Below the pieces are notes generated by a model. It was not told where the DNA came from. It did no database searches and saw only the letters and a list, made by a program, of their open reading frames with translations. The position numbers were made by a program, and so were the translations under genes. Of a stretch of 63,098 bases of DNA, positions 2,131 to 21,693 are shown one piece after another. Origin of the DNA: Candidatus Micrarchaeota archaeon (GTDB lineage: Archaea > Micrarchaeota > Micrarchaeia > Micrarchaeales > CABMGC01); NCBI GenBank assembly GCA_021803245.1, contig JAJZLT010000016.1, forward strand, positions 1-63,098. Reading direction: 5' to 3'. Every line of letters begins with the position of its first letter. Position 1 is the first letter of the stretch.

Positions 2131-2261
2131 GAATTAATCCCTTCGATCTTACTATATTAACATTGCTACAGAAATATTGATTTTTCTTTAATATACTTGG
2201 TGTATTTTAAATAGATTGTAAATTTTCCGATGGAGCAGCTTTAAATACGCTTTTAATGTTA

Positions 2262-3239: not shown

Positions 3240-3271
3240 GATTTAACCCCTCATATTCGCTATGGCGATTT

Positions 3272-4613: not shown

Positions 4614-6716
4614 GTGCTGGTGTTTTTCGCATTTGCTGTATTGCTCTCTATTGGCGCGATAAATGCGCTGATACCTATAATTATAATACTGATACTTATA
4701 GCTGCTGCGGCTGGCTCTACCAGGGGATACAGCATCTTTGCAATATTGGGCATAGGCACAATTGCAGGAATGGGGCCAAGCGGAAAAGGCAGCATGGCTG
4801 GGAAAGGAAGCTATCCTTTCAGATCCATTCTTGATCCGAATATAAGAGGGCCCAGGAAGTCTCCAGAGGCTAAGAAGAGGAAAGCAGAGAGGAAAGAGAA
4901 GGCAAAAAAGGAAGAAGAAATTCGCAGGAGCAGACCTTTGCCTTTAGGAGCGCCAACGCCTAAAAGATCACTAAAACCATGGCAGAAGAGGACCATTAAG
5001 GTAGCAAGATGGGCAGTTGCACCCGCAATAGTTGGCAGTGGCATTGTAGTTTATCAGAAAGGCTTGGCAGTGGCTAGAAGGATAGCGAGGTCAGCGAATC
5101 CGCAGGACAAGCGGGATGCCAGATCTGCAAGGACAGGAGTAGCAACGGACCGGCTTAGCAGAAGCCTTGACTCACGGAAAGCCCCACAGTATAAACCAAA
5201 TACCACTCCAGGAGCGCCTCCTGGAAGCGGGATGGTTACAAACAGATTGAGCACAGAGAATAGGGAAATTATAAGAAGAATATTAGATGCCAGAAGTAGG
5301 GGAATAGGAGCAGTGCCTACAAGCGCCATTGGGGTTGGGGCAGGGACTGAATTAAGGAGGGCTGCCCTGGCACTTAAAAACCGCCAATTCAAGGTGGCCA
5401 ATACGCACCTAAACAATGTTTCCAAGATAGTGAGCCATAACCTGCAGCAGAGGCAGCTAAATGCAGTTTCCGGAAAGGCTTTGCAGGAAAGGCAAAAACT
5501 CCTGAAGGACATGAATGAAGCAAACGAAATAGGAAAGGGACGCACTGCGACAAGAGGAGGGACTACTTACACAGGAGCAGATGTAGGTGCTGCAAAAACT
5601 ATATGGGGCTCTCTTGCGATGACTGGAATTGCGAAGCTTAGAGGAGACAAATATGGATCTGATTTATATAAGAGAGATGCTCTTGCGCAGCTTAAGGTTA
5701 GGAGCGCAGAGGGTGGCCTTGCACTCTCCGATAGGCTCAGGCATGGAGTAACTGATAAAAAAGGCAGTGTAACCATGGGTCCGCTTCATCAGCAAATAGG
5801 AAGAGCGGCAAGGCAAGAAAAAGCTGGCGAAAACACCAGAGCAAGGGAAAAACACCTGCGTGAGCTTGAAATGTTTCTGTATGGCTCTGTAGGACAGATT
5901 GGAGCTTTCGAAAAGATGTATGGAGTCACTAATCCAGGCAAAGTAGTTAAGTTGAGAGAGAGGGTAAAAGCCGAACAGGCAATTGCAGATTACAAATATA
6001 GTGGAGATCCGGCTGCACTGACAGCGATGAATAGCGCTAAAACGTCAGGAATTATCAGTGATCAGGAATACAATAAAGCCGTTATCGCAGGCCCGTATTC
6101 ATTTACGAGAAAAGAGTATGAATCGCAGACAGAGAAAAACAAAAATGCCATGGAAAACGTTTTGCAGATTGAGATTGGAAGGATAGCATTTGCACAGGAT
6201 AAACTTGCGCACGGCGAAATAACACATGATGTTTATGAAAAAGAGATGGGCAAGATACAGAAGGAGCAGAACCTTCTCAGTAAGCTCGCATATGAGCATT
6301 CACGGCTAACCTCAGGAAACCCTCCTGGAAGGATAGAGGTAGGCTTTAAGCGCAAAATTGGACCGGAAGGAGGGGTAGAGGCGAACGGGCTTCTGCCTAC
6401 CATAAAAATAAACCCGCGCCAGACCGGCACAAGCGGCGTGGCACAGCGGTTGTTTGAGTTTCATAGGAATGTAAATACTATTAACAAGCTAAAAGAAAGG
6501 GGCGACAGAGAATTCTTGCCCCCGACCAACGGCATATTGAATGCTTCTGGAAGATGGCGCAATGAAAACGTTACCAAGTACCACTCCTTTGAAGTTGGCA
6601 GTGCGCCTGCGATGAATAGGAGTGTGTATGAAATAGGGGAAGGAAAACATGTTGAATACCAATTAAGGCGCAGGAGGGTAGTGCCTCTGCCTCACTGGGA
6701 GAGGAAAGAGACATGA
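4614..6716 (+). CDS. Membrane-anchored, extremely basic (K/R-rich), partly coiled-coil protein of unknown function (700 aa)
   Basis: Long ORF with an N-terminal hydrophobic hairpin (LLSIGAINALIPIIIILILIAAAAG ... IFAILGIGTIAGMG), a third hydrophobic segment (WAVAPAIVGSGIVVY), then a K/R/E-rich sequence. First gene of the plus-strand locus. Confidence 0.6.
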   Translation: MLVFFAFAVLLSIGAINALIPIIIILILIAAAAGSTRGYSIFAILGIGTIAGMGPSGKGSMAGKGSYPFRSILDPNIRGPRKSPEAKKRKAERKEKAKKEEEIRRSRPLPLGAPTPKRSLKPWQKRTIKVARWAVAPAIVGSGIVVYQKGLAVARRIARSANPQDKRDARSARTGVATDRLSRSLDSRKAPQYKPNTTPGAPPGSGMVTNRLSTENREIIRRILDARSRGIGAVPTSAIGVGAGTELRRAALALKNRQFKVANTHLNNVSKIVSHNLQQRQLNAVSGKALQERQKLLKDMNEANEIGKGRTATRGGTTYTGADVGAAKTIWGSLAMTGIAKLRGDKYGSDLYKRDALAQLKVRSAEGGLALSDRLRHGVTDKKGSVTMGPLHQQIGRAARQEKAGENTRAREKHLRELEMFLYGSVGQIGAFEKMYGVTNPGKVVKLRERVKAEQAIADYKYSGDPAALTAMNSAKTSGIISDQEYNKAVIAGPYSFTRKEYESQTEKNKNAMENVLQIEIGRIAFAQDKLAHGEITHDVYEKEMGKIQKEQNLLSKLAYEHSRLTSGNPPGRIEVGFKRKIGPEGGVEANGLLPTIKINPRQTGTSGVAQRLFEFHRNVNTINKLKERGDREFLPPTNGILNASGRWRNENVTKYHSFEVGSAPAMNRSVYEIGEGKHVEYQLRRRRVVPLPHWERKET

Positions 6717-6800
6717 GGCTAGCCCATGGAGATCAATTTAGGTGCTTGGACTTTGGCGATAGGCTCTTCCTGAAGCATCTCCACTCTCTTCATAGATATC

Positions 6801-6812
6801 TAATTATATAAT
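6801..6812 (+). promoter_or_regulatory. TATA-like box about 25 nt upstream of ATG 6832
   Basis: TAATTATATAAT is centred about 25 nt before the start codon. There is a 115-nt gap after the preceding gene. Confidence 0.3.
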
Positions 6813-6831
6813 TTGCCATAGATATAGCACT

Positions 6832-8085
6832 ATGCGCCTAGCCAGTAGCATTTCCAGGGTCCTACTTTTCATGCTTTTCTTTCTTGGCATAGCTAACGCG
6901 TGCAGTGCAGCAGCGAACACAGCAGGATTTAATTTATCCTCTATTAACAATGGAAGCGGGCTGGAACTCTCTTTCATCGCACTTCTTATCTCAGTAGACG
7001 TGATAGCGATCGGTTGGATTGCAAACAAGATCCTACCTTCCATAGGCATAGCAGGCTGGCTGCCGAGAGAGTACTGGGAATTTACTAAATCTGCAATTCT
7101 GGTAACTGTGATCTTCTCAGTGATAGCGTTCGTAAGCGGGCTCTCCTTGCTTCTCGGAGGAGTCACTCCGCCCACTGCAGGAGCAGCACAGACATATGCT
7201 GCAAATGCAAATGCACTGGTCTACCAGTCTGAGACTTATCTTTGCACAGTTGACAACTCCCTCCAGGCTTCAATGGCAAACGTAGTCACGCTCTCTTTCG
7301 GATTGGGCGAAGTGAACGGAGCATATGGCGCCGTAGGTTCCTTTGCTGATGGGCAGGGCGGAAATCCCGGCTCGTATGCGGGCCTTGCGCTCTTCTATCA
7401 GGGCATACCGATCCCGCCTGTTCCACTGCCAGGATTTTTCGGGCTACTTCCGGAATTCAGGTCAGGCATAAACTTTGTCATACTCAGCAACTTCATGCTC
7501 GGCTCGAACTTCGTCTTCCACAGCCAGTTTGTCTCATTCATAAACGATGCGCTTGTCTTCCTGGCCTTCCCGATGGCCCTCTTCTTTATCTCTGAAGAGA
7601 AGCTGCTCCCCCTGCTTGTGCTTATAGGGCTCAACGTGCTCATACCAATCGGCCTTGTCTTCCGCTCTTTCCCGTTCCTGCGGAACATAGGGGGAACTCT
7701 GGTGGCGCTCGGCATAGGCGTTTCGCTCATCTGGCCATCGCTGCTGCTGCTGATCAATGTGCCGCTTACTGGTTACTTCAAGCCATTGCTCTATGACACC
7801 ACCTCATCAAGCACAGCGTTCTCAAACAGCTGCCCCGGCTTCTTCGCCATTATATGCAACGGAGTAAACACGCTCTTCACCGGAACATTCTACGGTTTTG
7901 ACAGCATAGACAATATTTATCCGGATATCAACTTCCTTATGAAAAATGAGCTCTTTATAATATTCCAGCAGTATGTGCTCTTCATGATAGACCTGGTAAT
8001 CTTCTTCCCGCTCACCGATGCAATAGCGAGAACACTCGGAGGCACAATCAGGCTTCAGCTCGGAAAGAGGTTTAAGCTGGTGTAG
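6832..8085 (+). CDS. Polytopic membrane protein, paralog 1 of 6 (signal-peptide-like N-terminus)
   Basis: Motif VFRSFPFLRNIGGTLVALGIGVSLIWP. N-terminus MRLASSISRVLLFMLFFLGIANAC. Many hydrophobic segments. Confidence 0.8.
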   Translation: MRLASSISRVLLFMLFFLGIANACSAAANTAGFNLSSINNGSGLELSFIALLISVDVIAIGWIANKILPSIGIAGWLPREYWEFTKSAILVTVIFSVIAFVSGLSLLLGGVTPPTAGAAQTYAANANALVYQSETYLCTVDNSLQASMANVVTLSFGLGEVNGAYGAVGSFADGQGGNPGSYAGLALFYQGIPIPPVPLPGFFGLLPEFRSGINFVILSNFMLGSNFVFHSQFVSFINDALVFLAFPMALFFISEEKLLPLLVLIGLNVLIPIGLVFRSFPFLRNIGGTLVALGIGVSLIWPSLLLLINVPLTGYFKPLLYDTTSSSTAFSNSCPGFFAIICNGVNTLFTGTFYGFDSIDNIYPDINFLMKNELFIIFQQYVLFMIDLVIFFPLTDAIARTLGGTIRLQLGKRFKLV

Positions 8086-8087
8086 AT

Positions 8088-9260
8088 ATGATAGGCCTAT
8101 TCTCGTTTGCAAACTTCATGCTCGCTGCCACGACTACTTACCAGGCTACCTGCTCCTATGCATATCTGAACCAGGCCGGCTGGATAAACATAAACATGCT
8201 TGTTGTACTGGCATTCATGCTTATTGCATCGCTGATATATGCGATAAGCTCGCTGCTTCCTGCTTCGAAGAGCGAGAGGGCCAAGGGCCTTGTGAAATTT
8301 GAATTGGTGCAGGGCGTAATAAGCGTTCTGCTCATAGTGGCCATACTTTCCTTCGCAGATGTTACGTGCAATGCAGGCGCAGCGCTTATGGGTCCGTACA
8401 GCGGATATCAGGATCCATTCCAGTACTCGCATTTCTATCTAGGAACCCTTGTCTTTACCACAGGCGTCTCGCTTATTTCGAGCTTGTGGTCGCAGGGAAT
8501 AATACTGCTGGTGGACGGAAACCTGGTAGGCGACTTCCTAAGCAGCATTCCGCTGGGCCATCTTAGTCTAGGCCCATTCAGCGGTGAATTTGGCATAGGT
8601 GAAGAAGCCACATATGTCTTTTTCGAATACAACGGAATACTCACGCAGGTCTTCTCGGTCATCGTAGTGCTTACTTCCGGAATACTGGTCATCGTATTCC
8701 TTATCCTGCCTGCGGTAGAGCAGCTCGCCCTTGGTGTTGTGCTGCCCGTGGCTATCATAATGAGATCGCTTTCATTTACCGGGCCCAGGCTGCGTGAGGC
8801 TGCCAATTCATTCATCGCTCTTGCTCTTGCCTTCTATTTCGTCTTCCCCATGACAATAGTTATGGACAGTTATATTGTAGGATGGCTCTACTGCACCAAC
8901 GGAACGACATGCAATCCTTATTCAGGCTATCTTGGTTCATATCCGCTGAGCAATCTGCCGGTAAGCCCGCTCTTCAAGCAGACAAGCGAGACAACATTAG
9001 GCCTTGGCGCGCCGCTGAGTATTTACAGCGCAGAGGTAAGCGGAAATGGAGGCATAGGAAGCATGCTGACGCAACTGCTTGAGGGCCTGGTAAGGCTGCC
9101 TGCGCTTGTGCAGAATTTTATACCTTCTGTGGCAGAGTACGTCTTCCAGGGCGTTATGCTTTTAGGGCTTGACCTTGCAATAACAGTCGGATTTGCAATA
9201 GGTCTTACAAAGAGCTTTGCTGCAGCTTCAAGTTTTATGCATATTGGCCCGGTGCTTTGA
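8088..9260 (+). CDS. Polytopic membrane protein, paralog 2 of 6 (most divergent)
   Basis: Starts 2 nt after the previous stop, with GGTG upstream. Degenerate motif IMRSLSFTGPRLREAANSFIALALAFYFVFP. Same TM layout as the other paralogs. Confidence 0.75.
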   Translation: MIGLFSFANFMLAATTTYQATCSYAYLNQAGWININMLVVLAFMLIASLIYAISSLLPASKSERAKGLVKFELVQGVISVLLIVAILSFADVTCNAGAALMGPYSGYQDPFQYSHFYLGTLVFTTGVSLISSLWSQGIILLVDGNLVGDFLSSIPLGHLSLGPFSGEFGIGEEATYVFFEYNGILTQVFSVIVVLTSGILVIVFLILPAVEQLALGVVLPVAIIMRSLSFTGPRLREAANSFIALALAFYFVFPMTIVMDSYIVGWLYCTNGTTCNPYSGYLGSYPLSNLPVSPLFKQTSETTLGLGAPLSIYSAEVSGNGGIGSMLTQLLEGLVRLPALVQNFIPSVAEYVFQGVMLLGLDLAITVGFAIGLTKSFAAASSFMHIGPVL

Positions 9261-9311
9261 AATGGATGATACTGCAAGATTTAACGGGGCATGCAAATTG
9301 GTGGGGCTACG

Positions 9312-10766
9312 ATGAGGTCATCTGTACTGCTTATACTGTTATGCGCTCTGCTCCTGCCTTTCCTTATCACATCCACAGCGGCTGCCGCGCCCCAGACCAA
9401 AACCACCATAACAAATGCAAATGTGCTAAACCAGTGGCTAAGTGTTATAATGATAGCGGTGCTGGCCAGCGTGCTGCTGCTTATCTTTTACTATGTTGCA
9501 GGATACCTTCTCAATAATGCGCAGATAAAGACAACTGCAATCAACGAGATCCAGCAGGCTTTCGGCACAGCAGTGGCAGTCTTTATAATAATAGCTGCAC
9601 TTGATTTTGTAGGGAATGCGGTTTTCTCTAGTACAAATCTCGTGCCTCCTTCGACCATAAGCAACATCTGCACTACCTTGACTGGCGCTAATCTGGATTT
9701 TGTGAAAAATGCTGCACCTAATGGATATTACACGCCTACAAACACTCTCTGCAATGGCATTATAAGCAAGGCCAAAAGCGGCACTCTCAGCGTCTCAAAT
9801 TCCATCGACTATGGCTTAGGGGCCTCTTACATAATAATAGCCAACATAACCAACCAGAGCCTCACTAATCTGAATGCGGTCTACATTTTCGAGAGCTATA
9901 CCGGATTCTTGACCGCACTGAACCCCACGGCAAGCGTTTGCATACCTAATGATATCTGCCTGACTGAAGGTGTGCCGGCCTTCTACGCTTCTATCAGCTA
10001 TGCACCTTTTGCCGCTTATGGAACTCTTAGGGGAGTTGTCTTTCCTGTAGCCTCGCAATCAGAGATGATTTTTTACATGAGTCTGCTGGAGGAGATGGCG
10101 ATACTGCTTATGCTTTACGCATGGCCATATATACTCGCTGCGGGCATAATACTGCGCGCGTTTACTTTTACCCGGCGGGCAGGCGGGCTTATCATTGCCT
10201 TGGTGCTCTCTGCCCTGATTATCTTCCCGCTGATAATGCTTTTTGAGTACTCCTCTCTTACTAATCCGCATATAGTGCCGGTAGGTGCGAATGAGATAAC
10301 CGTAAATGCGATAAGCAATAGCATTGCGCTTAAAGGATTACCCGTTGGAAAAACCAACACCCCTGCAAACGTAATAGATTACAGCTCCGGCACCATAAAC
10401 TTCTTCTCCTTCCCGCGCGCAGACTACGTGCTTAATTACGAAGGCTGCTGGCCCGGCACGTCAATGCTTACCAGGGAAGCGGAGATAGTAGGAGGTTATG
10501 CCATACCGGGTTACGGGGAATTTCTCACCCTCTCAACTGTGCTCGGATCGTTCACTGGATCGGTGCCTGCTGTGCCCTTCACAAATTGCAACTGGCCCAA
10601 TGTAATACACTCGCTCTTTGCGCTTGAAAACCTCTATGGAATACTCTCAGTGATAGGAATAATAGTGCCAATACTCAATCTCCTGCTTGTGCTTGGCAGC
10701 GCCAGAAGCCTATCATTCCTGCTTGGCGGAGACATGAATATCTTTGGGCTTGGGCGCTTGTTGTAG
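9312..10766 (+). CDS. Polytopic membrane protein, paralog 3 of 6
   Basis: Motif ILRAFTFTRRAGGLIIALVLSALIIFP. I prefer the ATG at 9312 (MRSSVLLILL..., GGTGGGG upstream) over the track start at 9291. Confidence 0.8.
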   Translation: MRSSVLLILLCALLLPFLITSTAAAAPQTKTTITNANVLNQWLSVIMIAVLASVLLLIFYYVAGYLLNNAQIKTTAINEIQQAFGTAVAVFIIIAALDFVGNAVFSSTNLVPPSTISNICTTLTGANLDFVKNAAPNGYYTPTNTLCNGIISKAKSGTLSVSNSIDYGLGASYIIIANITNQSLTNLNAVYIFESYTGFLTALNPTASVCIPNDICLTEGVPAFYASISYAPFAAYGTLRGVVFPVASQSEMIFYMSLLEEMAILLMLYAWPYILAAGIILRAFTFTRRAGGLIIALVLSALIIFPLIMLFEYSSLTNPHIVPVGANEITVNAISNSIALKGLPVGKTNTPANVIDYSSGTINFFSFPRADYVLNYEGCWPGTSMLTREAEIVGGYAIPGYGEFLTLSTVLGSFTGSVPAVPFTNCNWPNVIHSLFALENLYGILSVIGIIVPILNLLLVLGSARSLSFLLGGDMNIFGLGRLL

Positions 10767-10774
10767 GTTTGACC

Positions 10775-11989
10775 ATGAAAAAATACGCGCTCGCACTGCT
10801 CTTTGCCTTTTTCGTATTAGCTTCGCCTTCACTCGACATGGCGTCACCTCCCGCTACAATAGGTAGCACATACTGCACGCCCATCTTTACGCCTAGCAAA
10901 GCAGTAGTCTCTACTTCATTCGTGCTAAGCCCCGGCTCTGTGCCAATACACGGTACTTTTGGCGGGGTGATAAGCATAGCCCTCCTCATAGTGCTGATGG
11001 TGTTTACTGTAATAGCACTCGTATATGGGGTAGGAGTAGCTTTCAGAATAGACAAGCTTATTAGATTCGGTCGCGCCGAGCTTCTTGAATCGTTTGCGAA
11101 CGTAGTGATAATAGTAGTAATAGCGTTTGGGGTAGGAACCATACTAGGCGCAGCGTCTTTCCTTGCCAACCTGGGCTCGCTTAATGTGGTTGCTCCTTCA
11201 TCCGGTTTTTCCACAGGCGTGCAGGGTTTCTATACCAACACATGCATAAACATCTTCAACAACGTCATAATAACCAGCTTATTTGACATGGTAGGAGGCC
11301 TTGCTAACGCTGTCGTCTACGAGATACTTGACGACTTCCAGCTAACTTTCGTGCCAGGGGGCTACATTTCCTATGTTGTACCTGGTTTTGAGGTCCAGCC
11401 ATTTCAGGGAATAGGCCCAATAGTCTCGCTGACCTTCGTTGAGACCTCCACATTTACAGCATTCATTATGACAGGATTGGGCATAATCTTCATGCTTTTT
11501 GTCATTTATTACCTTTTCCCTGTCTTCCTTTATTTGGGGATAGTGCTCAGGTCATTCCCATGGACGAGACCGGCAGGAGGTGCGCTTATAGCGATATTCG
11601 TCTCGTTTTACATCTTCTTCCCCGCCCTACTCTATCCTTTCACTACCTTCGGCAGTAGCGTCAGTAACATATACTGCAATGGCTCTTCATCGCACGGAGG
11701 AACCACTTCAACCACCGGGAGTCCAGTTCCGGATATCTGCAGCTCAAATAATATTACGCATTACATCGCTACTGGGGGCATAGATGCCTTGCTGGCCCTT
11801 TTGGGCAACATTAACGCCGCATTCAACAGTAATGTAGAGATATATGCGAGCATGGTAGCCGCATTCGCGATTGAGTTTATAGGATTTGCCATAGCATTTC
11901 TTATATCCTACGACCTGCTGGAGGTTTTTGGAGACCTGTTCGGCTCGCCTTCGCTGCAGGCGAATAGAATACTGAGTAGATTGATATGA
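10775..11989 (+). CDS. Polytopic membrane protein, paralog 4 of 6
   Basis: Motif VLRSFPWTRPAGGALIAIFVSFYIFFP. ATG at 10775 (MKKYALALLFAFF) is preferred over the TTG at 10769. Confidence 0.8.
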   Translation: MKKYALALLFAFFVLASPSLDMASPPATIGSTYCTPIFTPSKAVVSTSFVLSPGSVPIHGTFGGVISIALLIVLMVFTVIALVYGVGVAFRIDKLIRFGRAELLESFANVVIIVVIAFGVGTILGAASFLANLGSLNVVAPSSGFSTGVQGFYTNTCINIFNNVIITSLFDMVGGLANAVVYEILDDFQLTFVPGGYISYVVPGFEVQPFQGIGPIVSLTFVETSTFTAFIMTGLGIIFMLFVIYYLFPVFLYLGIVLRSFPWTRPAGGALIAIFVSFYIFFPALLYPFTTFGSSVSNIYCNGSSSHGGTTSTTGSPVPDICSSNNITHYIATGGIDALLALLGNINAAFNSNVEIYASMVAAFAIEFIGFAIAFLISYDLLEVFGDLFGSPSLQANRILSRLI

Positions 11990-13185
11990 TGCTTTTGCCT
12001 TTTCTCTTGCCTGGGGGATATGCGCTTGCTGCCAACGGATGCTCAGCCACAGGCGGTGCGGCAAGCCTGGCCAACTATATTACCGCACCATGCGGGGCAT
12101 GGTTCCCTATTGCATTGATAGCCGTACTGATGGTGATAGGGCTTATGGCCATAATATATGGCCTGAGTGAATTCATAGGAAGGAATGATATAAAGACGTG
12201 GGTCAGGGTAAAGATTTATGACGCGCTGCTTTCTATAGTCTTTATACTCATCTTTGCTGCATTCGGCACGCTCTTATTTACGATACCTGTAGCATCAACC
12301 CTGCAGAGCGTGAAGCTCTTCCCTGGAAGCGGGGGAAGCACGCCTTCTGAATGCGCAGCCCAATCGCCTACGAAAGTAAACAACCTTTATTCGGTAGCGT
12401 CGTGCGACATGTTCCTCTTCAACTTTTACGAAGCGAACCTAAACTTATATATATTCTATAGCTTTCTTCTTACTTCTGCAGTATCCCCATCGATAGGATT
12501 CGCGCTCAGTTTTGGGCCAGGCTCGCTAAGCAGCGGAGGCAGCACAGGCAGCCTTGCAGGCAGCGTAGGAATCGGTGCTTCAGGCATTGAGATCTTCCCG
12601 CAATACGCGTCTTATAAATTCCTTGGGCCGGTGCTCGACCTTTTCTATGGCCTGATACTGCTGAATCAGGTTCAGCTTATACTTATCGCAGCTTCCGGGT
12701 TAATCTTCTCCATCTTTATGGCACTTGGACTGATTGCAAGGGCTTTTGTGATAACGCGCACGTTCGGTGGCGCGATGATAGCATTTGCAATAGGAATAGG
12801 ATTTATCTACCCTCTTCTTGTTTCGATAAACTATGGCTTTCTTGTATATGCGCTCTCTACAAACACGCTGAGTTCTCTTGTAAATTTCTCAAGCGGAACC
12901 TTTGCGTTTTTTGGCGTGCCTCTGATGTTTATTAATCTGATAGCAAGCCTGACAACAGGCCTCGTTGGTTCTGCCCTCTCATTCTTTTCTGTTGGCAGTT
13001 CGGCATATACTCAAGTGGTAAGCGTATTTCCTGCCGCCCTCTTTGAGTACTTCGGCCTTGTGATTTCAGGGCTTATGTTCATACCTGTGCTTGAGCTTGT
13101 GCTTGTCGACGTCTTCATCATAGACTTCTCGCAGGCGATAGGGGAACGCATGGACCTCCTCTCGCTATTTACGAGGCTGCTGTGA
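11986..13185 (+). CDS. Polytopic membrane protein, paralog 5 of 6
   Basis: ATGA start/stop overlap with the previous gene. Motif IARAFVITRTFGGAMIAFAIGIGFIYP. Confidence 0.8.
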   Translation: MMLLPFLLPGGYALAANGCSATGGAASLANYITAPCGAWFPIALIAVLMVIGLMAIIYGLSEFIGRNDIKTWVRVKIYDALLSIVFILIFAAFGTLLFTIPVASTLQSVKLFPGSGGSTPSECAAQSPTKVNNLYSVASCDMFLFNFYEANLNLYIFYSFLLTSAVSPSIGFALSFGPGSLSSGGSTGSLAGSVGIGASGIEIFPQYASYKFLGPVLDLFYGLILLNQVQLILIAASGLIFSIFMALGLIARAFVITRTFGGAMIAFAIGIGFIYPLLVSINYGFLVYALSTNTLSSLVNFSSGTFAFFGVPLMFINLIASLTTGLVGSALSFFSVGSSAYTQVVSVFPAALFEYFGLVISGLMFIPVLELVLVDVFIIDFSQAIGERMDLLSLFTRLL

Positions 13186-13195
13186 GCTGATTTGC

Positions 13196-14275: not shown

Positions 14276-14336
14276 CCGTAATTGGCACTTCCCTGCGTTA
14301 ATTTAATAAGCTTTCCAGTTTATTCTTAATTGATCG

Positions 14337-15176
14337 GTGTTCGTGTTGGCACTTAACCTGCAGCTCCTGCTCTTTGTGATACTCGTAGGAGCAGGAATAG
14401 TTGTTGCTGTCTTCATCTACGCTGTTCCGTCCCCTGTGCTTTCGCCGATTCTGGCAGTAATAACACTCGTAATTGCTGTCTTCGCTTTCGCCACTAAATA
14501 CTATACGTACCTGATGGTGCCTGCACTGAAGATGAAAGGCAGAACCATAGTGCTCAGCGCAGACGAACCGTTTATCATAGCGCCCAATAACGCCGCAATA
14601 TTGATGCATGAGGGACAGGAGGTTTACGCGAGCGCGTTCGTAAAAATTCCGCTTTACAGGTCTGCCACCGAGATGAGCAATGATGAGAAGCTCGATTTTG
14701 CGCGCCTCTTCTCGAGGATGACTACGCTCAGCAAGACACCTGTCAAGATCTCTTCGCAGATGCACGTGATAAACAAGGATGAATATATTACAAGCATAAG
14801 GAACAAGCTTAACGAGGCCCAGGAGCGATACGCCACGCTTGGGGCGAAGCCCGGGGGCAGCAAGGCAAGCAATGACAGAATAAAAGGCGAAGTCACCATG
14901 TGGAAGAACCTCATGGACAATGTCAGCGCCTCGCAGGCACATGCACTCACTATATATGCAATGGTCAGCGCTATGGGCGGCAATGAGGAGGAAGCATTGA
15001 CTATTGTCAATCAGCAGGCAGAGGATTTTGCTGCAGGAGTTAGCGCCATATTCGGAGTAAGTGCATATGTAGTGAAAGGCATCGAGCTTCTTACATTCAT
15101 AGAGCCGGACCACATGATACCGGTAGAGACGGTGACTGAAAGGCTTAAGGAGAAGGCTACAGAAGAGGCGCTATAG
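14337..15176 (+). CDS. 2-TM protein with soluble domain, paralog A (VirB3/VirB4-N-terminal-domain-like architecture, inferred)
   Basis: N-terminal hydrophobic hairpin followed by a roughly 200-aa soluble domain. Aligns by eye with the next gene. Confidence 0.65.
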   Translation: MFVLALNLQLLLFVILVGAGIVVAVFIYAVPSPVLSPILAVITLVIAVFAFATKYYTYLMVPALKMKGRTIVLSADEPFIIAPNNAAILMHEGQEVYASAFVKIPLYRSATEMSNDEKLDFARLFSRMTTLSKTPVKISSQMHVINKDEYITSIRNKLNEAQERYATLGAKPGGSKASNDRIKGEVTMWKNLMDNVSASQAHALTIYAMVSAMGGNEEEALTIVNQQAEDFAAGVSAIFGVSAYVVKGIELLTFIEPDHMIPVETVTERLKEKATEEAL

Positions 15177-16001
15177 ATGGACGAGTATACCATAATGTAC
15201 TTATCGATTTCAGGCATACTCATATTCATCGTTATTGCAGGCTATGGCGCATACGGCTCATTTGCACCGTTCGTGATCGTCTTGGCCATACTTGCCATGC
15301 TACTTATACTCTTGCTTAATTATGCCGACTTCGTGATCTTCCCGGTTATAACGCAGGTGCTTGGAATAAAGGTGCTCCTCTGGAAGGATTACATGGTGCC
15401 CAAGACAGAGAACTGCGTGATAAAATACACTAAAGGGCTGTACTACGCGCAGGGCTATCTCTCGGCAAACATTTATAACTACATCTTCGCTGCGGAAAAC
15501 ATAAACCAGGAAGAAGATGCAGGCATAATCAGCGGTGCAGATAAATGGGAGAGGATAGTTATGAGCATAGACTTTCCGTTCAAGTTTAATGTAGTTTCAC
15601 TCGCAGAAGAATTGCAGAAGCACAGGGAAGAGCTTGAAGGCAGGCGCGGTTTCCTGCAGTTTCAGATGTCGCGGGAAATGAGCAGCGGCAATCCAAACAC
15701 TCTGACAATACAGGAGATGCAGAAGAAGATAAATATAATACAGGCAAGGATAGACAGGATCTCGGCAGGAGAAAGGCCGGTGAAGACGATAATGTACATA
15801 GAAACAGTTGCAGTCGGAGTCAGCGAGAAAGAGGCCACAGATAACCTTACCAATCAGCTAAACAAGCTGATTACAGTGTTCAATTCATTCGACCTGAGCA
15901 TAATGCGCGTAACGGGAAGGGAGATGCATATACTCAACAAACTTAACTATAGGATTATGGACTTTGACCTGCTTAACAGACAGTTCCAGCTGCAAAAATA
16001 A
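15177..16001 (+). CDS. 2-TM protein with soluble domain, paralog B
   Basis: ATG lies immediately after the previous stop. Same layout as paralog A. KTIMYIETVAVGVSEKEATDNLTNQLNKLITVFNSF aligns with ALTIYAMVSAMGGNEEEALTIVNQQAEDFAAGVSAIF in A. Confidence 0.65.
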   Translation: MDEYTIMYLSISGILIFIVIAGYGAYGSFAPFVIVLAILAMLLILLLNYADFVIFPVITQVLGIKVLLWKDYMVPKTENCVIKYTKGLYYAQGYLSANIYNYIFAAENINQEEDAGIISGADKWERIVMSIDFPFKFNVVSLAEELQKHREELEGRRGFLQFQMSREMSSGNPNTLTIQEMQKKINIIQARIDRISAGERPVKTIMYIETVAVGVSEKEATDNLTNQLNKLITVFNSFDLSIMRVTGREMHILNKLNYRIMDFDLLNRQFQLQK

Positions 16002-16040
16002 ATGAAATATATTTAAGCTTTGAAAGCCAAGTGCATTTGT

Positions 16041-17555
16041 ATGTCGATTGTGCGTATCCAGAACGTAATGAGCAATGAGCTCTCGAAGAGAATCTTCGTC
16101 ACCAGACCTCCGGAGCCGCCTTACGAGTTTCTGCTCAATGACCCTACAGATTCGATCTTTATAGGTATAACCAAGCTCTTTGGAGTGCCATTTACGTGGA
16201 ATTTTGCGAATCTTGCGAACCCGCACATATCCGTAGTAGGAATTACCGGATCTGGAAAGAGCTTTTTTGTGAAGACCTTCCTGACCAGAGCCAGCTTCGT
16301 CTGGAATACAAATGCAATAATAGTCGACTGGGCAGGCGAATACATAGCTTGGGTAAGGAATAGCGGTGGCGTGGTAGTCTCGCTTGCTAAAGGGGACTAC
16401 ATGAACCTGATGGACCTCTCTGGCACAAAGCCCCTCGACCGAGTAAAGCAGATTATGAATGCCTTTGACATACTTACAGACATCTCTGATTTCCCTGAGC
16501 AGCGGAGGCTTACCGCAGAAGCGATGGAGCAGGCTTATCTGAATGCAGGATTCGGGCTTGCAACACTTCCGGATCCGAGGAGGGAGGTGCCAACGCTCAA
16601 GGATGTTACAAAGCTGCTTGAAGAGAAACTGCAGGAAGGCACATACCAGTATCCTGCAGAGCTGGAAAATACAATTTATAGGTTAAGGCAGTTCTCCAGG
16701 GAAGGGGAGGACTATTTCGCCAAGAAGAGCACAATAGACCTCGGCAAACTTGCCACCTCCGGTCTGGTAGACATAGACCTTTCCGGACTCCCTGATGAGA
16801 AGTTCAGGGCCATGGCTGCTCTCTTCATTCTTCAGACGCTAGAAGTGATAATGCGCGCTGAAGGATGGAGCTCAAACAAGGGATTAAAGGCGCTGGTGGT
16901 CCTTGACGAGGCCTGGAAGATAGCCAACGACGAGAGGAGTGACGCCATAACGATAATAAGAGAGGGCAGGAAGTATCAGTTCGGGCTCATAGTAGCATCT
17001 CAAAATCCAACAGATATAAATGAGGCCATCTTCTCTAACGTAGGCACTACAATAATGCTCAAGATAAAGTTTGAGAAATTCTTGGACTACCTGCAGGGTT
17101 CGCTCAACTTCTCTGCTTACATAAGGAAAGAAATAGGCAATTTCGGGGTTGGGCAGGCTGCCGTTGACATGTCCTTTAACACGTCTGTCCAATTTCCCAA
17201 TGTCTTCGTAATCGAGAGGATAGTAGGGGAAGTGCCGCTTGATACCTACACCATAACCATAGGAGACATACTCACGCCATCTGAGCAGGAACAGAAAACT
17301 ATACCTAAGGATTATTCCTTTGAGAGGATAGACATGAGCTCAAAATTCGTAGATGCGGGCTTCAGCGCAGAGGCAATACAGAAGATATTCAAAGGCATGG
17401 ATAGCAGGGGGAGGATAATTGACATAAGGGCTATGATGCAGATACTCTCTGCCGAGAATATTGACAAGAATGTCATGGTTTCATTCTTAAGAGGCATAGG
17501 CCTCTCTGACACGCTGATAACACGGGTCTTCGGATACCTGGCAGCGCAGATGTGA
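16041..17555 (+). CDS. P-loop ATPase of the FtsK/HerA/VirB4 superfamily (DUF87/AAA_10-like)
   Basis: Walker A VVGITGSGKSFF, Walker B LVVLDEAWKI, and REGRKYQFGLIVASQNPTD. ATG at 16041 is preferred over the TTG at 16020. Confidence 0.85.
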   Translation: MSIVRIQNVMSNELSKRIFVTRPPEPPYEFLLNDPTDSIFIGITKLFGVPFTWNFANLANPHISVVGITGSGKSFFVKTFLTRASFVWNTNAIIVDWAGEYIAWVRNSGGVVVSLAKGDYMNLMDLSGTKPLDRVKQIMNAFDILTDISDFPEQRRLTAEAMEQAYLNAGFGLATLPDPRREVPTLKDVTKLLEEKLQEGTYQYPAELENTIYRLRQFSREGEDYFAKKSTIDLGKLATSGLVDIDLSGLPDEKFRAMAALFILQTLEVIMRAEGWSSNKGLKALVVLDEAWKIANDERSDAITIIREGRKYQFGLIVASQNPTDINEAIFSNVGTTIMLKIKFEKFLDYLQGSLNFSAYIRKEIGNFGVGQAAVDMSFNTSVQFPNVFVIERIVGEVPLDTYTITIGDILTPSEQEQKTIPKDYSFERIDMSSKFVDAGFSAEAIQKIFKGMDSRGRIIDIRAMMQILSAENIDKNVMVSFLRGIGLSDTLITRVFGYLAAQM

Positions 17556-17556
17556 T

Positions 17557-17856
17557 TTGACGACTGGAACATTTATAATAAGCAGGATAGAGCTTGAACG
17601 GGTGCTTACCGGGCTAGGAGTCAGTACGCAAAAGATCGAAGGCCTCGTTTCTGCGCTCAACAAGATGCACAGGCATTCGAATGCGGTGGCGTTCGTAGGC
17701 ATGCTCCAGAAGACCGGGCTAAGACAGCCTGAGATAGCGAATATATTAAGGAGGATAGGGATAGACGATGTTACTGTTACAAATATCTTTAACTCTCTTG
17801 ACGAGGAGAGGATAAAGAGCGCATTTGGCAGGATTGTGGAACTGAAGGTGGAATGA
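17557..17856 (+). CDS. Small helical-repeat protein related to the C-terminal tail of the ATPase
   Basis: Three copies of a G-[ILV]-x-x3-[IV]-x3-[ILF] module (GLGVSTQKIEGLV, KTGLRQPEIANIL, RIGIDDVTVTNIF). These resemble DAGFSAEAIQKIF and GIGLSDTLITRVF in the ATPase tail. TTG start. Confidence 0.5.
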   Translation: MTTGTFIISRIELERVLTGLGVSTQKIEGLVSALNKMHRHSNAVAFVGMLQKTGLRQPEIANILRRIGIDDVTVTNIFNSLDEERIKSAFGRIVELKVE

Positions 17857-18257
17857 TGCAGGCCAAGAAGCAGCACACATACTGCATGGTATGCGGAAAG
17901 GAGAAAACAGGCATCTCTGTCAAGGAGGATTATGTTATAGACATTATAAGGTGGTTCAAGAAGACAGTGCTCAGGTCCGAAAGCCACAACCTGCTTGTAG
18001 TATGCAAAGAGGATTACCCAGTATATAAGAAATACAGGAAGAGGTTCGTATCAAGGCAGCGGATCTATATAGTGCTTGGCGTTCTTTTCGTAATCTTTGG
18101 CATGATTATCTCGCCGTTTATAACCACGCTGCTTTATATGCTTGCGCTTCTTCTTTTCCTGTACCTCCTCTCCCTGATAAATTATGTGCCTGCACTGGAT
18201 CTGATGAAATATAAGGAAGGCAAGAAAACCGTAGGCAAGAAGAAGGATGCACTGTGA
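17853..18257 (+). CDS. Zn-ribbon-like N-terminus plus two C-terminal TM segments (134 aa)
   Basis: ATGA overlap with the previous gene. CMVCGKEK ... VVCKEDY, then hydrophobic IYIVLGVLFVIFGMIISPFITTLLYMLALLLFLYLLSLI. Confidence 0.55.
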   Translation: MMQAKKQHTYCMVCGKEKTGISVKEDYVIDIIRWFKKTVLRSESHNLLVVCKEDYPVYKKYRKRFVSRQRIYIVLGVLFVIFGMIISPFITTLLYMLALLLFLYLLSLINYVPALDLMKYKEGKKTVGKKKDAL

Positions 18258-18278
18258 GTGCAAAAATGCCAGGCTCTC

Positions 18279-18286
18279 TTTTTTTT
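18279..18286 (+). terminator. T8 run inside a short inverted repeat, candidate archaeal terminator ending the 6832-18257 operon
   Basis: ATGCCAGGCTCTCTTTTTTTTGGCAT lies 22 nt after the stop codon. Confidence 0.35.
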
Positions 18287-18405
18287 GGCATGGAAAGCCT
18301 TTATAGCTTGACTTCCAAATAATACCGTTTTTTCTCCTATTCGAGAAATAAAACAGTATATAAACTTTAGGATATACCAATTATCATTGATGAGATTGTG
18401 GTCTT

Positions 18406-19131: not shown

Positions 19132-19135
19132 GCTT

Positions 19136-19282
19136 ATGGAATATAAATTTGTCGTAAACAAGCAGTACAAATACATGCGCATATACAATATAGTAAAGAA
19201 GGTCAGCGGAAACCCCAATATAATCTCAAAGGCAATACAGTCGCTTGTTGACAAATACATAGTCAAGAAGAAACCGCTTTGA
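19136..19282 (+). CDS. Possible 48-aa lysine-rich small protein (not in the ORF track)
   Basis: Hand translation gives MEYKFVVNKQYKYMRIYNIVKKVSGNPNIISKAIQSLVDKYIVKKKPL. It exactly fills the gap between two genes. Confidence 0.3.
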   Translation: MEYKFVVNKQYKYMRIYNIVKKVSGNPNIISKAIQSLVDKYIVKKKPL

Positions 19283-19299
19283 CATTCACACTGGTCTTT

Positions 19300-21693
19300 A
19301 TGCCGTCTAAAAAGTTAATAGTTGCGATAATAATTATCGTGGCTGTGCTTGCAGCAATAATGTATTTGTACTTGAGGAACGCCCTATCCATAGCGTCAAT
19401 AATAGGCCAGTATGGCATAAAGCCGACCGGCCGCATAAGCGAGCTTATAGGCGTATCTCAGACTGGCATCGCCAGCTACAATAATGCCCAGTCGTTTGTC
19501 TCATTTGGGATAGTGCACTACAATCTGACCAATGCAAGCTACATGAATCTTTCACTGATTACGTACAAGAATAATCCTGTGCAGCAGATATACCTGCTTG
19601 ACACAGGAAGCTCGTGCATGAACTGCATAAACGACCAATCGCTTTATGTTGCGCTTCTTGCTGATCTGAAGAAATATGATGCTGTGCAGAATAGCAGCTA
19701 CGTACATTACATCACATTCAGCGAACTGGGCGGGATAGTAAACAACTCCATAATAATAATACCATCCGGGCTGATGCCTGCAAGCCTGCTGCCTGGAACA
19801 GGCTTCAACTCAAGCGGAAGCAACATTACCATAATTAACATGCTTAACAGGGGAGACACAATAATATACATAGGCAGAAACTTCTCACAGATGGATAACA
19901 ATGGAGAGGTTTATATCACACCATCAGTAACAAGCGGATATCTGAATGCTACAGGGTTGGAGAGCACGGCTTTCCCGCCAGGCATAAATACATCGATAAA
20001 TGGCTCGCGCCTCTATTTCAATTCTTCTCAGTTTCAGTTTCTGAAAGGGAAACTGTACGGGCCGCTGAGCTACGTTGCTGCTGAAAACGGAAGCATTGTG
20101 TCATTTGGCAACTATCCCAGCTATGCATGGCAGAATATAAGCGCAGCCGCAAGCGACCTTTCCACGGTGCTCATGCAGCGCTTTTGGATGACCACCTTCC
20201 TTATAGGAAACGACAACCTTAACTTCAGCGCTGAAGTCTACGGAAACCATAGGAGCGTGGGAGGCTTCACTGACATAATATCGCTGCAGAAAACTCTTGG
20301 CCTGGCAAATTCCTCGCTTGTCAAGTCGCTTGTCAGCGGCTCATATTCCATGCTATATATAAAGACCGGAAACTACAATGGCTCCAGGACAACATATACA
20401 GAAATCCCTGTGACAATAACCCTTTCCAACAGCGCTCTCTTCAGCCTTCCTGCAGTAATTGGCGCAACTTCTACTGTGCCCATATACGTAAACCTGCTGA
20501 ACAAGTCATTGAATTCTGTCGCCTTCCATATCGATGTGTATACCTCTACGCTAGGCTACGTCTACAGCATACCGATAGGCTTCTTTAACACTTCGCTTGA
20601 GATAGTGAAGTATTACAATTTCAACCTGCCTACAGGCTATTACATTGGCTTCCTCAGGAGCATTTATGGGCAGAGCTACGGCAGCGTACTGTTCCAGGTG
20701 CTGGGCCTGAACGTCACCCCGATAAATTTGAACTTCCAGAAAGGGGTGTTCGCTTTTGAAATTTACAGCGACGGGCAGCCTGTGAACGAAGTGCCTTACC
20801 AGATCAGCATCAACAATGCATATCCTGAGAACGGAACTGTGAAAGATGGCATTATAAACTACTCCCTGCCTAAAGGCGTGCAGATCGCCCACGGCAATCA
20901 GGTATTCACTTTTTACACTCTTAACAGTACTTATACATACTCCGTGCTCTATGCCTCGCCGACGCAAATCTCGCCGTTCTACATTGAAGTTGCGATTGCC
21001 CTTGTTGCAATAATACTGCTCAACCTCGTGGCCAAGGCTCCTACGCGGGATGAGTATTATGTAGATGTGCCCACATTTCCGCCTAATACGAAGACAGAAG
21101 TCAAGGTGGATTCCAGCGCTATCATCAACCTTTTTGACACGGTAAATTATTACTATCACTGGAAATACATGCCTCTCACAGCCGAAGAGATAAAGAGCGG
21201 CATAGGGAGCAATCTGAGGTACAACAGCATGCCTATCTCAATAACCCTGCAGAATACACTTGAGGTGCTTGACAGGCTGTCCGTAAGCGGGAGCCTGGAT
21301 TCAAAATACGGATACTACATGCCTAAGAGGTGGAGGGACTCTTCCGGCCGTGATATAGAATACCTTGTGGTCTTCAGGAAGCTCAGGGATTATTGCGTTT
21401 CGCATGCGATGCTCTTCACAGAGATAGATTCAATTGAAAATGCTGACATGCTCGTAACCAAGGGCGGCATCCAGACGTATGTGTTCATATATTCGGCACT
21501 TTCCAGTACAAGGAAGATACATATCTCTTCCGGCAACAGGGCCGTGCTTGTATTTATAGACCAGGAAAGGAAAGCAGAATTCCTAGACAGGCTTTATGCT
21601 GCGGAAGGCAATGATGCTGAGCTTATGAAGATGGGCATAGCATGCTCGTACATAAAGCTGATAAGCACAGAAAACCTGGACCAGATAATTTAG
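19300..21693 (+). CDS. Large bitopic surface protein: N-terminal TM, about 540-aa sequon-rich ectodomain, second TM, about 210-aa cytoplasmic domain
   Basis: ATG at 19300 (MPSKKLIVAIIIIVAVLAAI) is preferred over the TTG at 19279. I count about 23 N-x-S/T sequons in the ectodomain. Second TM is FYIEVAIALVAIILLNLVA. Confidence 0.7.
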   Translation: MPSKKLIVAIIIIVAVLAAIMYLYLRNALSIASIIGQYGIKPTGRISELIGVSQTGIASYNNAQSFVSFGIVHYNLTNASYMNLSLITYKNNPVQQIYLLDTGSSCMNCINDQSLYVALLADLKKYDAVQNSSYVHYITFSELGGIVNNSIIIIPSGLMPASLLPGTGFNSSGSNITIINMLNRGDTIIYIGRNFSQMDNNGEVYITPSVTSGYLNATGLESTAFPPGINTSINGSRLYFNSSQFQFLKGKLYGPLSYVAAENGSIVSFGNYPSYAWQNISAAASDLSTVLMQRFWMTTFLIGNDNLNFSAEVYGNHRSVGGFTDIISLQKTLGLANSSLVKSLVSGSYSMLYIKTGNYNGSRTTYTEIPVTITLSNSALFSLPAVIGATSTVPIYVNLLNKSLNSVAFHIDVYTSTLGYVYSIPIGFFNTSLEIVKYYNFNLPTGYYIGFLRSIYGQSYGSVLFQVLGLNVTPINLNFQKGVFAFEIYSDGQPVNEVPYQISINNAYPENGTVKDGIINYSLPKGVQIAHGNQVFTFYTLNSTYTYSVLYASPTQISPFYIEVAIALVAIILLNLVAKAPTRDEYYVDVPTFPPNTKTEVKVDSSAIINLFDTVNYYYHWKYMPLTAEEIKSGIGSNLRYNSMPISITLQNTLEVLDRLSVSGSLDSKYGYYMPKRWRDSSGRDIEYLVVFRKLRDYCVSHAMLFTEIDSIENADMLVTKGGIQTYVFIYSALSSTRKIHISSGNRAVLVFIDQERKAEFLDRLYAAEGNDAELMKMGIACSYIKLISTENLDQII

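Follow-up and report, generated by a model that had tools for sequence, protein, structure and literature searches.

A chromosomally conserved membrane-apparatus locus of Micrarchaeota with probable kinship to type IV secretion and the Ced/Ted systems

The closest described systems to the locus reported here are Ced and Ted, for which Beltran et al. reported a VirB2-like/VirB6-like/VirB4-like arrangement and used the homology of CedA1 to the N-terminus of CedA to define both as domesticated type IV secretion systems (T4SSs) (PMC9905601). In CedB and CedD, the N-terminal domains (NTDs) are structural homologues of the VirB4 NTD, a fused architecture of transmembrane (TM) segment, NTD and motor has been described for CedB, CedD and VirB4, and Ced also has paralogues of both its motor-associated parts (CedB/CedD) and its channel parts (CedA/CedE) (PMC11868833). 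Among bacteria, the epibionts of the Patescibacteria (candidate phyla radiation, CPR) encode a chromosomal, phylum-wide, relaxase-less VirB4/VirB6 T4SS (PMC12102498). In this study, we analysed 63,098 nt of contig JAJZLT010000016.1 from a Candidatus Micrarchaeota archaeon (assembly GCA_021803245.1), a stretch that is called the window below, and characterized a block of 14 genes, g1 to g14, between its positions 4614 and 21693 (Table 1). With a probability of about 0.68, this block is a vertically inherited and strongly remodelled membrane translocation machine derived from a T4SS/Ced-like system. Its new features are a VirB4 split across three genes, six fixed VirB6-like paralogues, and four lineage-specific accessory proteins.

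An original prediction, made from the nucleotide sequence alone, had described the block as a membrane apparatus built around a VirB4/HerA-type motor ATPase, reminiscent of T4SS, Ced and Ted, fixed in the chromosome, and possibly handling the ankyrin proteins encoded beside it. Part of this interpretation has survived. The motor system is conserved and chromosomal, and the kinship with T4SS, Ced and Ted is supported by the fusion-type relatives of the ATPase, by the homology of g8 and g9 to the VirB4 NTD, and by a VirB6-like fold and homology in g2-g7; the ankyrin link was lost. Neither of the two outcomes named as fatal to the prediction was observed: the gene order is unlike that of Ced/Ted or a known plasmid block, and the ATPase has neither a NurA partner nor room for a HAS-barrel domain. 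The prediction had missed that the host is a DPANN symbiont, as well as the conservation of the block throughout the sampled phylum. Full-text literature searches returned no description of the block in Micrarchaeota or any DPANN lineage, and the papers on the co-culture and the surface layer (S-layer) of Micrarchaeum harzensis do not mention it. The sole T4SS-like proposal that we found for DPANN archaea concerns VirB4/TraG-like domains within giant SPEARE-type proteins of nanohaloarchaea (PMC10266531), the architecture of which differs from that of the Micrarchaeota block.

The motor of the system is g10. It matched DUF87 (1.6e-14), AAA_10 and P-loop_TraG in Pfam, and the Walker A, Walker B and Arg motifs that had been read from its translation (G74-S81, D296-E297 and R314-K318) are all present and invariant across the family. 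Its best NCBIfam matches, all far below their cutoffs, were CedD (NF053655; 66.7 bits vs a cutoff of 600), CD1110, a VirB4-like model from Firmicutes (66 bits vs 325), and CedB (NF041017; 60.3 bits vs 700), followed by TraC (51 bits vs 567) and the HerA models (45-49 bits vs 800-970); TIGR00929 (VirB4_CagE) gave 31.5 bits against a cutoff of 643. The structure of the VirB4 C-terminal domain (4ag5) aligned with g10 residues 65-341 at E 6.5e-7, and at E 3e-8 when a profile was used. No membrane segment is present in g10, and about 55 residues lie ahead of the P-loop region. To follow the block across genomes, we scanned one genome per GTDB species, which revealed an ATPase relative in at least 375 genomes, and compared g1-g14 by tblastn in the best 80 loci. 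The small gene g11, found in 78 loci, proved to be related to the motor: residues 430-507 of g10 and residues 4-81 of g11 aligned in hhalign with a probability of 96.8% (E 2.3e-10), and the hidden Markov model (HMM) of g11 matched the C-termini of many ATPase relatives. Since the last ~80 residues of g10 are homologous to the whole of g11, g11 is a free copy of the C-terminal helical domain of the ATPase, a relationship that had not been noticed before.

PADLOC returned only generic matches for g10 (HerA, mad8 and DndH ATPases), and none of the eight scanned partners (g1, g7-g9 and g11-g14) matched any of its models; a known anti-phage defence system with a HerA-like ATPase was rejected on this absence of a partner match. 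Inteins are typical of highly conserved genes. Two g10 orthologues, P0311 (1026 aa) and P0312 (1196 aa), carry inteins with Intein_splicing and LAGLIDADG homing endonuclease domains, inserted at different sites (after about residue 298, by Walker B, and after about residue 85, by the P-loop), and the g10 of the window is intein-free.

An exhaustive profile search with g10 across 1.84 billion cluster representatives yielded a graded series of relatives of ~480-515 aa, together with TM-NTD-ATPase fusions of ~870-980 aa, whose motor begins near residue 270-310. Apart from its orthologues, g10 has its nearest relatives among these fusions (~890 aa), which scored 1e-60 to 1e-66 with the g10 profile; their metagenome members comprise loci L083-L085 and proteins P0349, P0353, P0362, P0365 and P0398. 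The metagenome scan was started from a 5-sequence alignment and returned 30 loci, 24 of which (L087-L110) were discarded as unrelated cytosolic HerA-like ATPases; L086, a 1.4-kb fragment, was left out. In L083-L085, one polytopic protein of 286-307 aa is encoded directly upstream of the fusion ATPase, and in L084 and L085 it is itself preceded by an 84-aa protein with two TM segments that matches the N-terminus of the polytopic protein by sequence, the visible match being "APVPFKDIKQFGSGLMNDA" against "LPLPKHEWKAHGPDLLWDA". Judged from these similarities, hairpin protein, polytopic protein and fused ATPase very probably constitute the VirB2-like/VirB6-like/VirB4-like trio of Ced/Ted. A tyrosine integrase is encoded directly downstream of the L084 cluster (12929-14149), and an OLD-family nuclease (AAA_15 and TOPRIM) upstream in L083 (1420-3228); the genomic surroundings of the fusion-type clusters are mobile or variable. 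An additional region at the C-terminus of the fused ATPases looks, by eye, like a winged helix-turn-helix (wHTH) followed by a nuclease-like stretch, 'DILV...EVET'. No hhalign signal was found between this region and g10-g14.

In the Micrarchaeota block, the counterpart of the fused N-terminal module is to be sought in g8 and g9. The claim that these two proteins are paralogues holds at the profile level only: hhalign aligned them with a probability of 96.5% (E 7.7e-10, 225 columns), and BLASTP detected no similarity. With the g8 HMM, matches were obtained to P0362 and P0398, both ATPases of ~885 aa, over residues 4-250 (E about 5e-6), and to the L084 fusion ATPase (E 2e-6). When the first 290 aa of the fusion ATPases were used for comparison, hhalign gave 95.9% for g8 (E 5.4e-9) and 71.8% for g9 (E 3.5e-5). 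The AlphaFold2 (AF2) model of g9, with a predicted local distance difference test (pLDDT) score of 79, has a pair of TM helices (3-62) together with an alpha/beta domain. Its top six Foldseek matches in the PDB are all TrwK/VirB4 of R388 (8rtb_A, 8rtd_O/T/g/V and 7o41_B), at E 0.033-0.18 with probabilities up to 0.97 over 168 columns, the aligned part of VirB4 not being reported. The VirB4 N-terminal domain model PF03135 (CagE_TrbE_VirB) matched none of g8, g9 and g10, and sequence and profile searches of the PDB with the g9 family gave no significant match. Because they are homologous to the N-termini of the fused relatives, g8 and g9 are probably copies of a detached TM+NTD module. Homology and fold together thus indicate an N-terminal module of the ATPase that was split off and duplicated, a feature absent from the original prediction. 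The two-TM hairpin ahead of the NTD presumably recalls the VirB3-VirB4 fusions.

That g2-g7 are six paralogous polytopic membrane proteins was confirmed in two ways. Pairwise BLASTP gave E-values as low as 4e-9 and a shared central motif, roughly "LR[SA]F..TR..GG.hIA...h.P". With family alignments built from the orthologues in 80 related loci, hhalign aligned all 15 pairs with probabilities of 96-99.4% (E 1e-9 to 5e-21, 200-336 columns). The probabilities against the other paralogues were 98.2-99.4% for g2, 96.4-98.2% for g3, 96.4-99.2% for g4, 97.7-99.4% for g5 and 97.4-98.7% for g6, with orthologues, at the same position in the case of g2 and position-specific in that of g3, in 34, 42, 46, 50 and 52 loci, respectively. 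Each of the six keeps its own one-to-one orthologue at a fixed position across the sampled Micrarchaeota. A signal-like N-terminus and several TM segments are recognizable in g2.

Beyond the block, this family shows similarity to the polytopic protein encoded next to the fusion ATPases. The g2-g7 superfamily profile aligned with that neighbour at E 5.4e-5 (66.5%, 177 columns), and both the motif of the N-terminal hairpin and the central motif "PFR.GR.LG / R.F..TR..GG" were in register; g7 alone gave a collinear hhalign alignment at E 3e-4, and the motif region of g4 aligned at E 1.3e-3. The 84-aa hairpin protein weakly matched the first hairpin of g2, g4, g6 and g7 (E 0.0015-0.017), landing on the same region each time. 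The AF2 model of g7 (pLDDT 85) is a bundle of very long helices for which Foldseek found no significant match of any kind; among the non-significant ones, TrwI/VirB6 of R388 (7o3v_G/J/I) ranked 6, 9 and 45, with a probability of 0.85, a TM-score of 0.32-0.41 and E 0.3-1.2. None of g2-g7 matched a Pfam family, TrbL/VirB6 (PF04610) included, no Pfam match recurred among 60 orthologues of g7 even at E≤1, and the g7 family had no significant PDB match in sequence or profile searches. Each of these links is weak alone; taken together with the evidence from the ATPase and the NTD, which points in the same direction, they suggest that g2-g7 are VirB6/CedA-like.

The remaining proteins of the block are accessory to this core. 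As had been predicted, g1 is very basic (pI 10.4). Its relatives, 400-810 aa in length with a pI of 10-11.6, share only an N-terminal hydrophobic hairpin of ~70 aa, and their tails are always strongly basic and fast-evolving. The gene precedes g2 in the window, in L111 and in L113, and lies between g7 and g8 in at least seven loci (L036, L044, L047, L049, L050, L054 and L059). Because it recurs inside or beside the block across loci, g1 belongs to the system and travels with it. Pfam, NCBIfam and PADLOC gave no match for it. A zinc-ribbon membrane protein had been proposed for g12, which is present in 75 loci; the family consensus CxxC...CxxC (yCi.CG...lVvC..c) and the TM hairpin agree with this, but in the copy of the window an Asp replaces the fourth Cys ligand. 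For g13, which follows g12 in 68 loci, the suggested coiled coil and winged helix are reflected in weak matches to coiled-coil families at residues 133-188 and to Pfam winged-helix families at residues 204-239 (DUF5817_CT, EAP30, PCI and MarR_2); the family has no significant PDB match.

The bitopic, sequon-rich character of g14 was likewise borne out: the protein has two TM segments, and its N-x-S/T sequons number 23. At its N-terminus lies an anchor or signal, followed by a sequon-rich ectodomain of ~535 aa, a TM segment at residues 567-585 of the open reading frame (ORF), and a well-conserved cytoplasmic domain of ~220 aa, in which invariant columns are denser than in the ectodomain. No Pfam or PDB match was found for g14, and Pfam searches with 14 of its orthologues returned nothing recurrent. 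We rejected g14 as the S-layer protein, given that the described one (Micr_00292) has PF05123 and g14 has no such match. Pfam and PDB searches detected no relative of g12, g13 or g14 outside the lineage.

Several observations weigh against derivation of the block from a T4SS/Ced-like system. Searches of all 14 proteins against Pfam and NCBIfam gave no informative matches beyond generic ATPase ones, no T4SS model of either collection reaches its cutoff for any block protein, and by sequence alone HerA entries of the PDB and PADLOC score as high as VirB4 or higher. The Foldseek matches of g9 to VirB4 all lie above E 0.01. The links to VirB6 are weak in both kinds of comparison (E 0.3-1.2 in Foldseek, 39-66% in hhalign), and the comparison alignment for the VirB6-like neighbour consisted of three sequences. 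In addition, the block contains no separate VirB2-like pilin, coupling ATPase, relaxase or VirB1-like hydrolase.

Among the alternatives, Ced-type DNA import or exchange in the narrow sense, in which DNA from the host or other cells would be taken up for recombination or as a source of nucleotides, appears possible but doubtful. The rank of CedD and CedB among the NCBIfam matches of g10 speaks for it, although their scores fall about tenfold under the cutoffs. The Ced/Ted-like trio of the outside relatives, the by-eye wHTH/nuclease-like stretch of the fused ATPases, the polybasic g1 and the winged helix of g13 fit it too, and relaxase and coupling protein are missing from the block as they are from Ced (PMC9905601). 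However, the block has no Ups-like or CedA1-like pilin gene and no HerA, Rad50 or ParA neighbour as in Ted loci, and the six channel paralogues and g14 are without counterpart in Ced.

A lineage-specific envelope or cell-division machine that uses a HerA/FtsK-superfamily ATPase for segregation, membrane remodelling or S-layer assembly, and that is no T4SS derivative, appears quite improbable. The HerA structures that top the PDB matches of g10 align only with residues ~240-400, the C-terminal half of the motor, and, judging from the 511-aa architecture, the ~55 residues ahead of the P-loop region would be too few for the HAS-barrel domain of HerA. Nor is there a NurA or Mre11/Rad50 partner, and a HerA-NurA repair helicase was rejected because the equivalog models stay far below cutoff, the neighbours include no NurA and a HAS-barrel finds no room. 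An envelope or division machine could account for the housekeeping-like conservation of the block, its position next to top6B, the top rank of HerA in PADLOC, the lack of any T4SS Pfam match among the membrane proteins and the weak resemblance of the g13 winged helix to that of CdvB/ESCRT-III (2xvc, E 0.39), but not for the match of g8/g9 to a VirB4-type NTD by profile and fold, nor for the fact that the closest outside relatives occur in Ced/Ted-like trios, one of them beside an integrase.

The block is almost certainly a chromosomal system that occurs throughout the phylum. More than 1000 database relatives of g10 were found; the best 120 are 68-75% identical (one 99%) and ~501 aa long, and all the named ones are labelled Micrarchaeota. 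Similarly, nearly all the named loci among the best 80 are Micrarchaeota metagenome-assembled genomes (MAGs). Strict collinearity of g2-g14 was seen in about 45 of the loci that have full flanks, and since this 13-gene order recurs in about 45 independent Micrarchaeota loci, it is not a product of chance. Downstream of g14, a convergent top6B follows in 54 loci and a KH-domain gene in 52. The identity of the ATPase is 66-75% across Micrarchaeota, and 66-74% when set against 55-71% for top6B.

The GC content of the block (0.47-0.50) is within the range of the rest of the window, which holds tRNA-His (211-283, − strand) and three ankyrin ORFs (− strand) on one side, top6B (21792-23504, − strand) on the other, and further housekeeping genes (eIF2-gamma, Cdc48, a GlnRS/GluRS-type synthetase, argininosuccinate synthase and lyase, and others). 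In agreement with the original prediction, no integrase, relaxase, VirD4, PilB/FlaI, FlaJ/TadC or prepilin peptidase was detected by Pfam in the window, where the scan covered the ORFs of at least 150 aa minus a few such ORFs beyond 54 kb. A tblastn search of plasmids gave 2426 weak matches, 2106 of them on conjugative plasmids, with 23-27% identity among the matches listed and none above 28%; no meaningful phage match was obtained. The conserved flank, the absence of an integrase and the lack of any close plasmid or phage relative strongly suggest that the block is a vertically inherited core-genome system rather than a mobile element, and the chromosomal fixation proposed earlier is upheld by the top6B/KH flank in 54 loci together with the missing integrase. 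The reading of the block as an integrated conjugative element, or as the transfer module of a plasmid, with integrase and relaxase outside the window, for which the distant relationship of the ATPase to conjugative VirB4/TraC and the tyrosine integrase adjoining the L084 relative could be cited, is largely refuted by the top6B, KH and further housekeeping genes downstream in 54 loci, the unremarkable GC content, the scanned ORFs of the 63-kb window being free of integrase and relaxase, the ATPase divergence that tracks top6B, and the absence of close plasmid or phage matches.

Three ankyrin-repeat ORFs of 590, 325 and 403 aa are arranged in tandem at 358-4483 (− strand) of the window. In L111 and L113, the two other Micrarchaeota loci with an available upstream flank, TRAM/SOD genes or ribosomal protein genes lie upstream of the block instead. 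The ankyrin genes are thus not conserved neighbours, and the idea that their products are substrates of the machine was rejected for this reason.

The block is not intact everywhere. It is split or rearranged in L013, L015, L051, L063, L022, L027, L031, L037, L043 and L014/L113, with g13-g14 inverted upstream of g8-g12, g10-g14 without the upstream g2-g9, or g10-g12 without the downstream g13-g14. Insertions of 1-2 kb occur between g9 and g10 in L004, L032 and L038, and between g10 and g11 in L023. A single MAG, MAS1.bin30, has two copies of g8-g14 (L002 and L075), each with an ATPase 74% identical to that of the window, which could reflect a true duplication or two co-binned strains. Three loci (L006, L033 and L043) and three proteins (P0059, P0080 and P0136) are labelled 'Marsarchaeota', 'Saccharimonadales bacterium', 'Aquilonibacter' or 'bacterium', and the contigs concerned are most likely mis-binned. 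Elsewhere in the window, the GC content falls to ~0.40, vs ~0.46 elsewhere, at about 34000-37200, after tRNA-Pro (34292-34366). Four + strand ORFs of ~200 aa are found there, one with a DUF6036 nucleotidyltransferase domain and the rest without a Pfam match, and this stretch may be a small island inserted at tRNA-Pro.

The ORF map agrees with the co-directional organization that had been described: all 14 long ORFs of the block are on the + strand, and the − strand ORFs are shorter shadows nested inside them. The tight packing of g2-g12 (6832-18257) also stands, with intergenic spacing of 0-61 nt or 4-nt overlaps. Four such overlaps had been listed; those of g5/g6 (11986-11989) and g11/g12 (17853-17856) are real, whereas g2/g3 (8085/8088) are separated by a 2-nt gap and g8/g9 (15176/15177) abut directly. 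Wider gaps separate g1 from g2 (115 nt), g12 from g13 (148 nt) and g13 from g14 (147 nt). Two starts were adjusted in the light of homologue lengths, which suggest the ATG at 16041 (504 aa) for g10, where the ORF opens at a TTG at 16020 (511 aa), and the ATG at 19300 (797 aa) for g14, where the ORF opens at 19279 (804 aa).

Table 1. Genes of the Micrarchaeota block with their positions in the window and proposed products.
Gene	Proposed product	Position	Strand	Length (aa)
g1	Membrane-anchored polybasic protein	4614-6716	+	700
g2	VirB6/CedA-like polytopic membrane protein, paralogue 1 of 6	6832-8085	+	417
g3	VirB6/CedA-like polytopic membrane protein, paralogue 2 of 6	8088-9260	+	390
g4	VirB6/CedA-like, paralogue 3 of 6, largest extracytoplasmic insert	9291-10766	+	491
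g5	VirB6/CedA-like polytopic membrane protein, paralogue 4 of 6	10769-11989	+	406
g6	VirB6/CedA-like polytopic membrane protein, paralogue 5 of 6	11986-13185	+	399
g7	VirB6/CedA-like, paralogue 6 of 6, best conserved of the six	13196-14275	+	359
g8	N-terminal TM hairpin and VirB4-NTD-like domain, paralogue of g9	14337-15176	+	279
g9	N-terminal TM hairpin and VirB4-NTD-like domain, paralogue of g8	15177-16001	+	274
g10	VirB4/CedB-like P-loop ATPase, motor only, with C-terminal helical domain	16041-17555	+	504
g11	Free-standing ATPase C-terminal helical domain	17557-17856	+	99
g12	Cytoplasmic Zn-ribbon-like N-terminus and C-terminal TM hairpin	17853-18257	+	134
g13	Soluble protein; N-terminal domain, coiled coil, C-terminal winged helix	18406-19131	+	241
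g14	Bitopic surface protein	19300-21693	+	797

If the block is a remodelled T4SS/Ced-like machine, g10 would act as the usual hexameric VirB4-type motor on the cytoplasmic face. It would have lost the membrane anchor and NTD that VirB4, CedB and CedD have kept, and g8 and g9 would supply both in trans, docking the motor to the membrane. Above the tethered motor, g2-g7 could build a hetero-oligomeric channel or stalk, in which, in view of their fixed one-to-one orthology, none of the six paralogues would be redundant in its position, with perhaps one for each subunit of the motor. An S-layer and a pseudoperiplasm of 20-25 nm have been described for Micrarchaeota (bioRxiv 10.1101/2021.04.28.441871); g14 may span both, with its conserved cytoplasmic tail coupling it to the machine. 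The products of g1, g11, g12 and g13 would be cytoplasmic accessory or substrate-handling parts, and a nucleic-acid substrate might be handled by the polybasic tail of g1 and the winged helix of g13. Where symbiont and host touch, a polymer would be moved through the membrane of the symbiont, inwards or outwards, at the expense of ATP. By analogy with Ced and bacterial conjugation, this polymer is most likely a nucleic acid, and polymer transfer at the symbiont-host interface is the function that we favour from the parallel with Ced and the T4SS of Patescibacteria. A bolder version, which we consider unlikely, is that the block is an essential, phylum-wide apparatus of the DPANN-host interface, with a hetero-hexameric VirB6-like ring and with g14 bridging the S-layer to the host membrane, that imports host macromolecules; its cargo would be nucleic acids, or possibly proteins or lipids. 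If this were true, it would be the archaeal counterpart of the T4SS of CPR epibionts, and its subunit architecture would be without precedent.

Micrarchaeota, like other DPANN archaea, live as obligate episymbionts with reduced genomes, and we know of no molecular mechanism for the exchange of material between them and their hosts. Within a small genome, the block occupies about 17 kb; it is conserved to the same degree as topoisomerase VI, is syntenic across hundreds of species, and appears related to the only machines by which archaea are known to pass DNA from cell to cell. Its size, conservation, synteny and Ced/Ted kinship therefore make it a concrete candidate for a host-interaction or macromolecule-uptake apparatus. 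A VirB4 distributed over three genes and a six-fold, positionally fixed expansion of VirB6-like proteins bear on the ways in which a minimal VirB4/VirB6 core may be reshaped. After the Patescibacteria, this would be the second lineage of ultrasmall symbionts in whose core genome a machine derived from conjugation became fixed. ARM-1 was reportedly cultured with Sulfolobales by Sakai et al. in 2022, and a cultured system exists in Ca. Micrarchaeum harzensis with Scheffleriplasma (PMC8975820).

Compared with the bacterial systems, the block appears to resemble the T4SS of R388 (TrwK/VirB4, TrwM/VirB3 and TrwI/VirB6; 7o3v, 7o41, 8rtb and 8rtd) through the models of g9 and g7 and through the alignment of the g10 core with 4ag5. 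In contrast to R388, it has no homologues of VirB2, B5, B7-B11, VirD4 or relaxase and no outer-membrane complex, and its sequence similarity stays under every curated threshold; the VirB6 of R388 is a homopentamer, whereas the block has six distinct paralogues. With the T4SS of CPR epibionts it shares its occurrence on the chromosome throughout a phylum, the lack of a relaxase, a host that is an ultrasmall, genome-reduced episymbiont and a proposed co-option away from conjugation; the two may be analogous in function. The CPR system, however, is bacterial, descends from the mating pair formation (MPF)-FATA type and is recognized by standard VirB4/VirB6 HMMs, whereas the Micrarchaeota block is not recognized by those HMMs and has another subunit inventory.

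Closer to the block are the fusion-type clusters (L083-L085), the NTD of which is homologous to g8/g9 and the polytopic neighbour weakly so to g2-g7, although they form a compact trio with a fused ATPase, an extra C-terminal domain and a mobile or variable context. Like Ced (CedA, CedA1, CedA2, CedB, CedD and CedE) and Ted (TedA, TedB and TedC), the block would be a chromosomal archaeal domesticated T4SS without relaxase or coupling protein, in which a VirB4-like motor is paired with VirB6-like polytopic channel proteins. It differs from both in that a TM+NTD module separate from the motor exists in two copies (g8 and g9), that there are six fixed channel paralogues rather than one or two, that a separate CedA1/TedC-like pilin gene is absent, that g1, g11, g12, g13 and g14 have no counterparts, and that the host is a DPANN episymbiont instead of a free-living crenarchaeon. 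Taking the homologies, the models and these analogies together, the Micrarchaeota block is probably of the same stock as Ced/Ted and the inner-membrane core of T4SSs, and would work like them.

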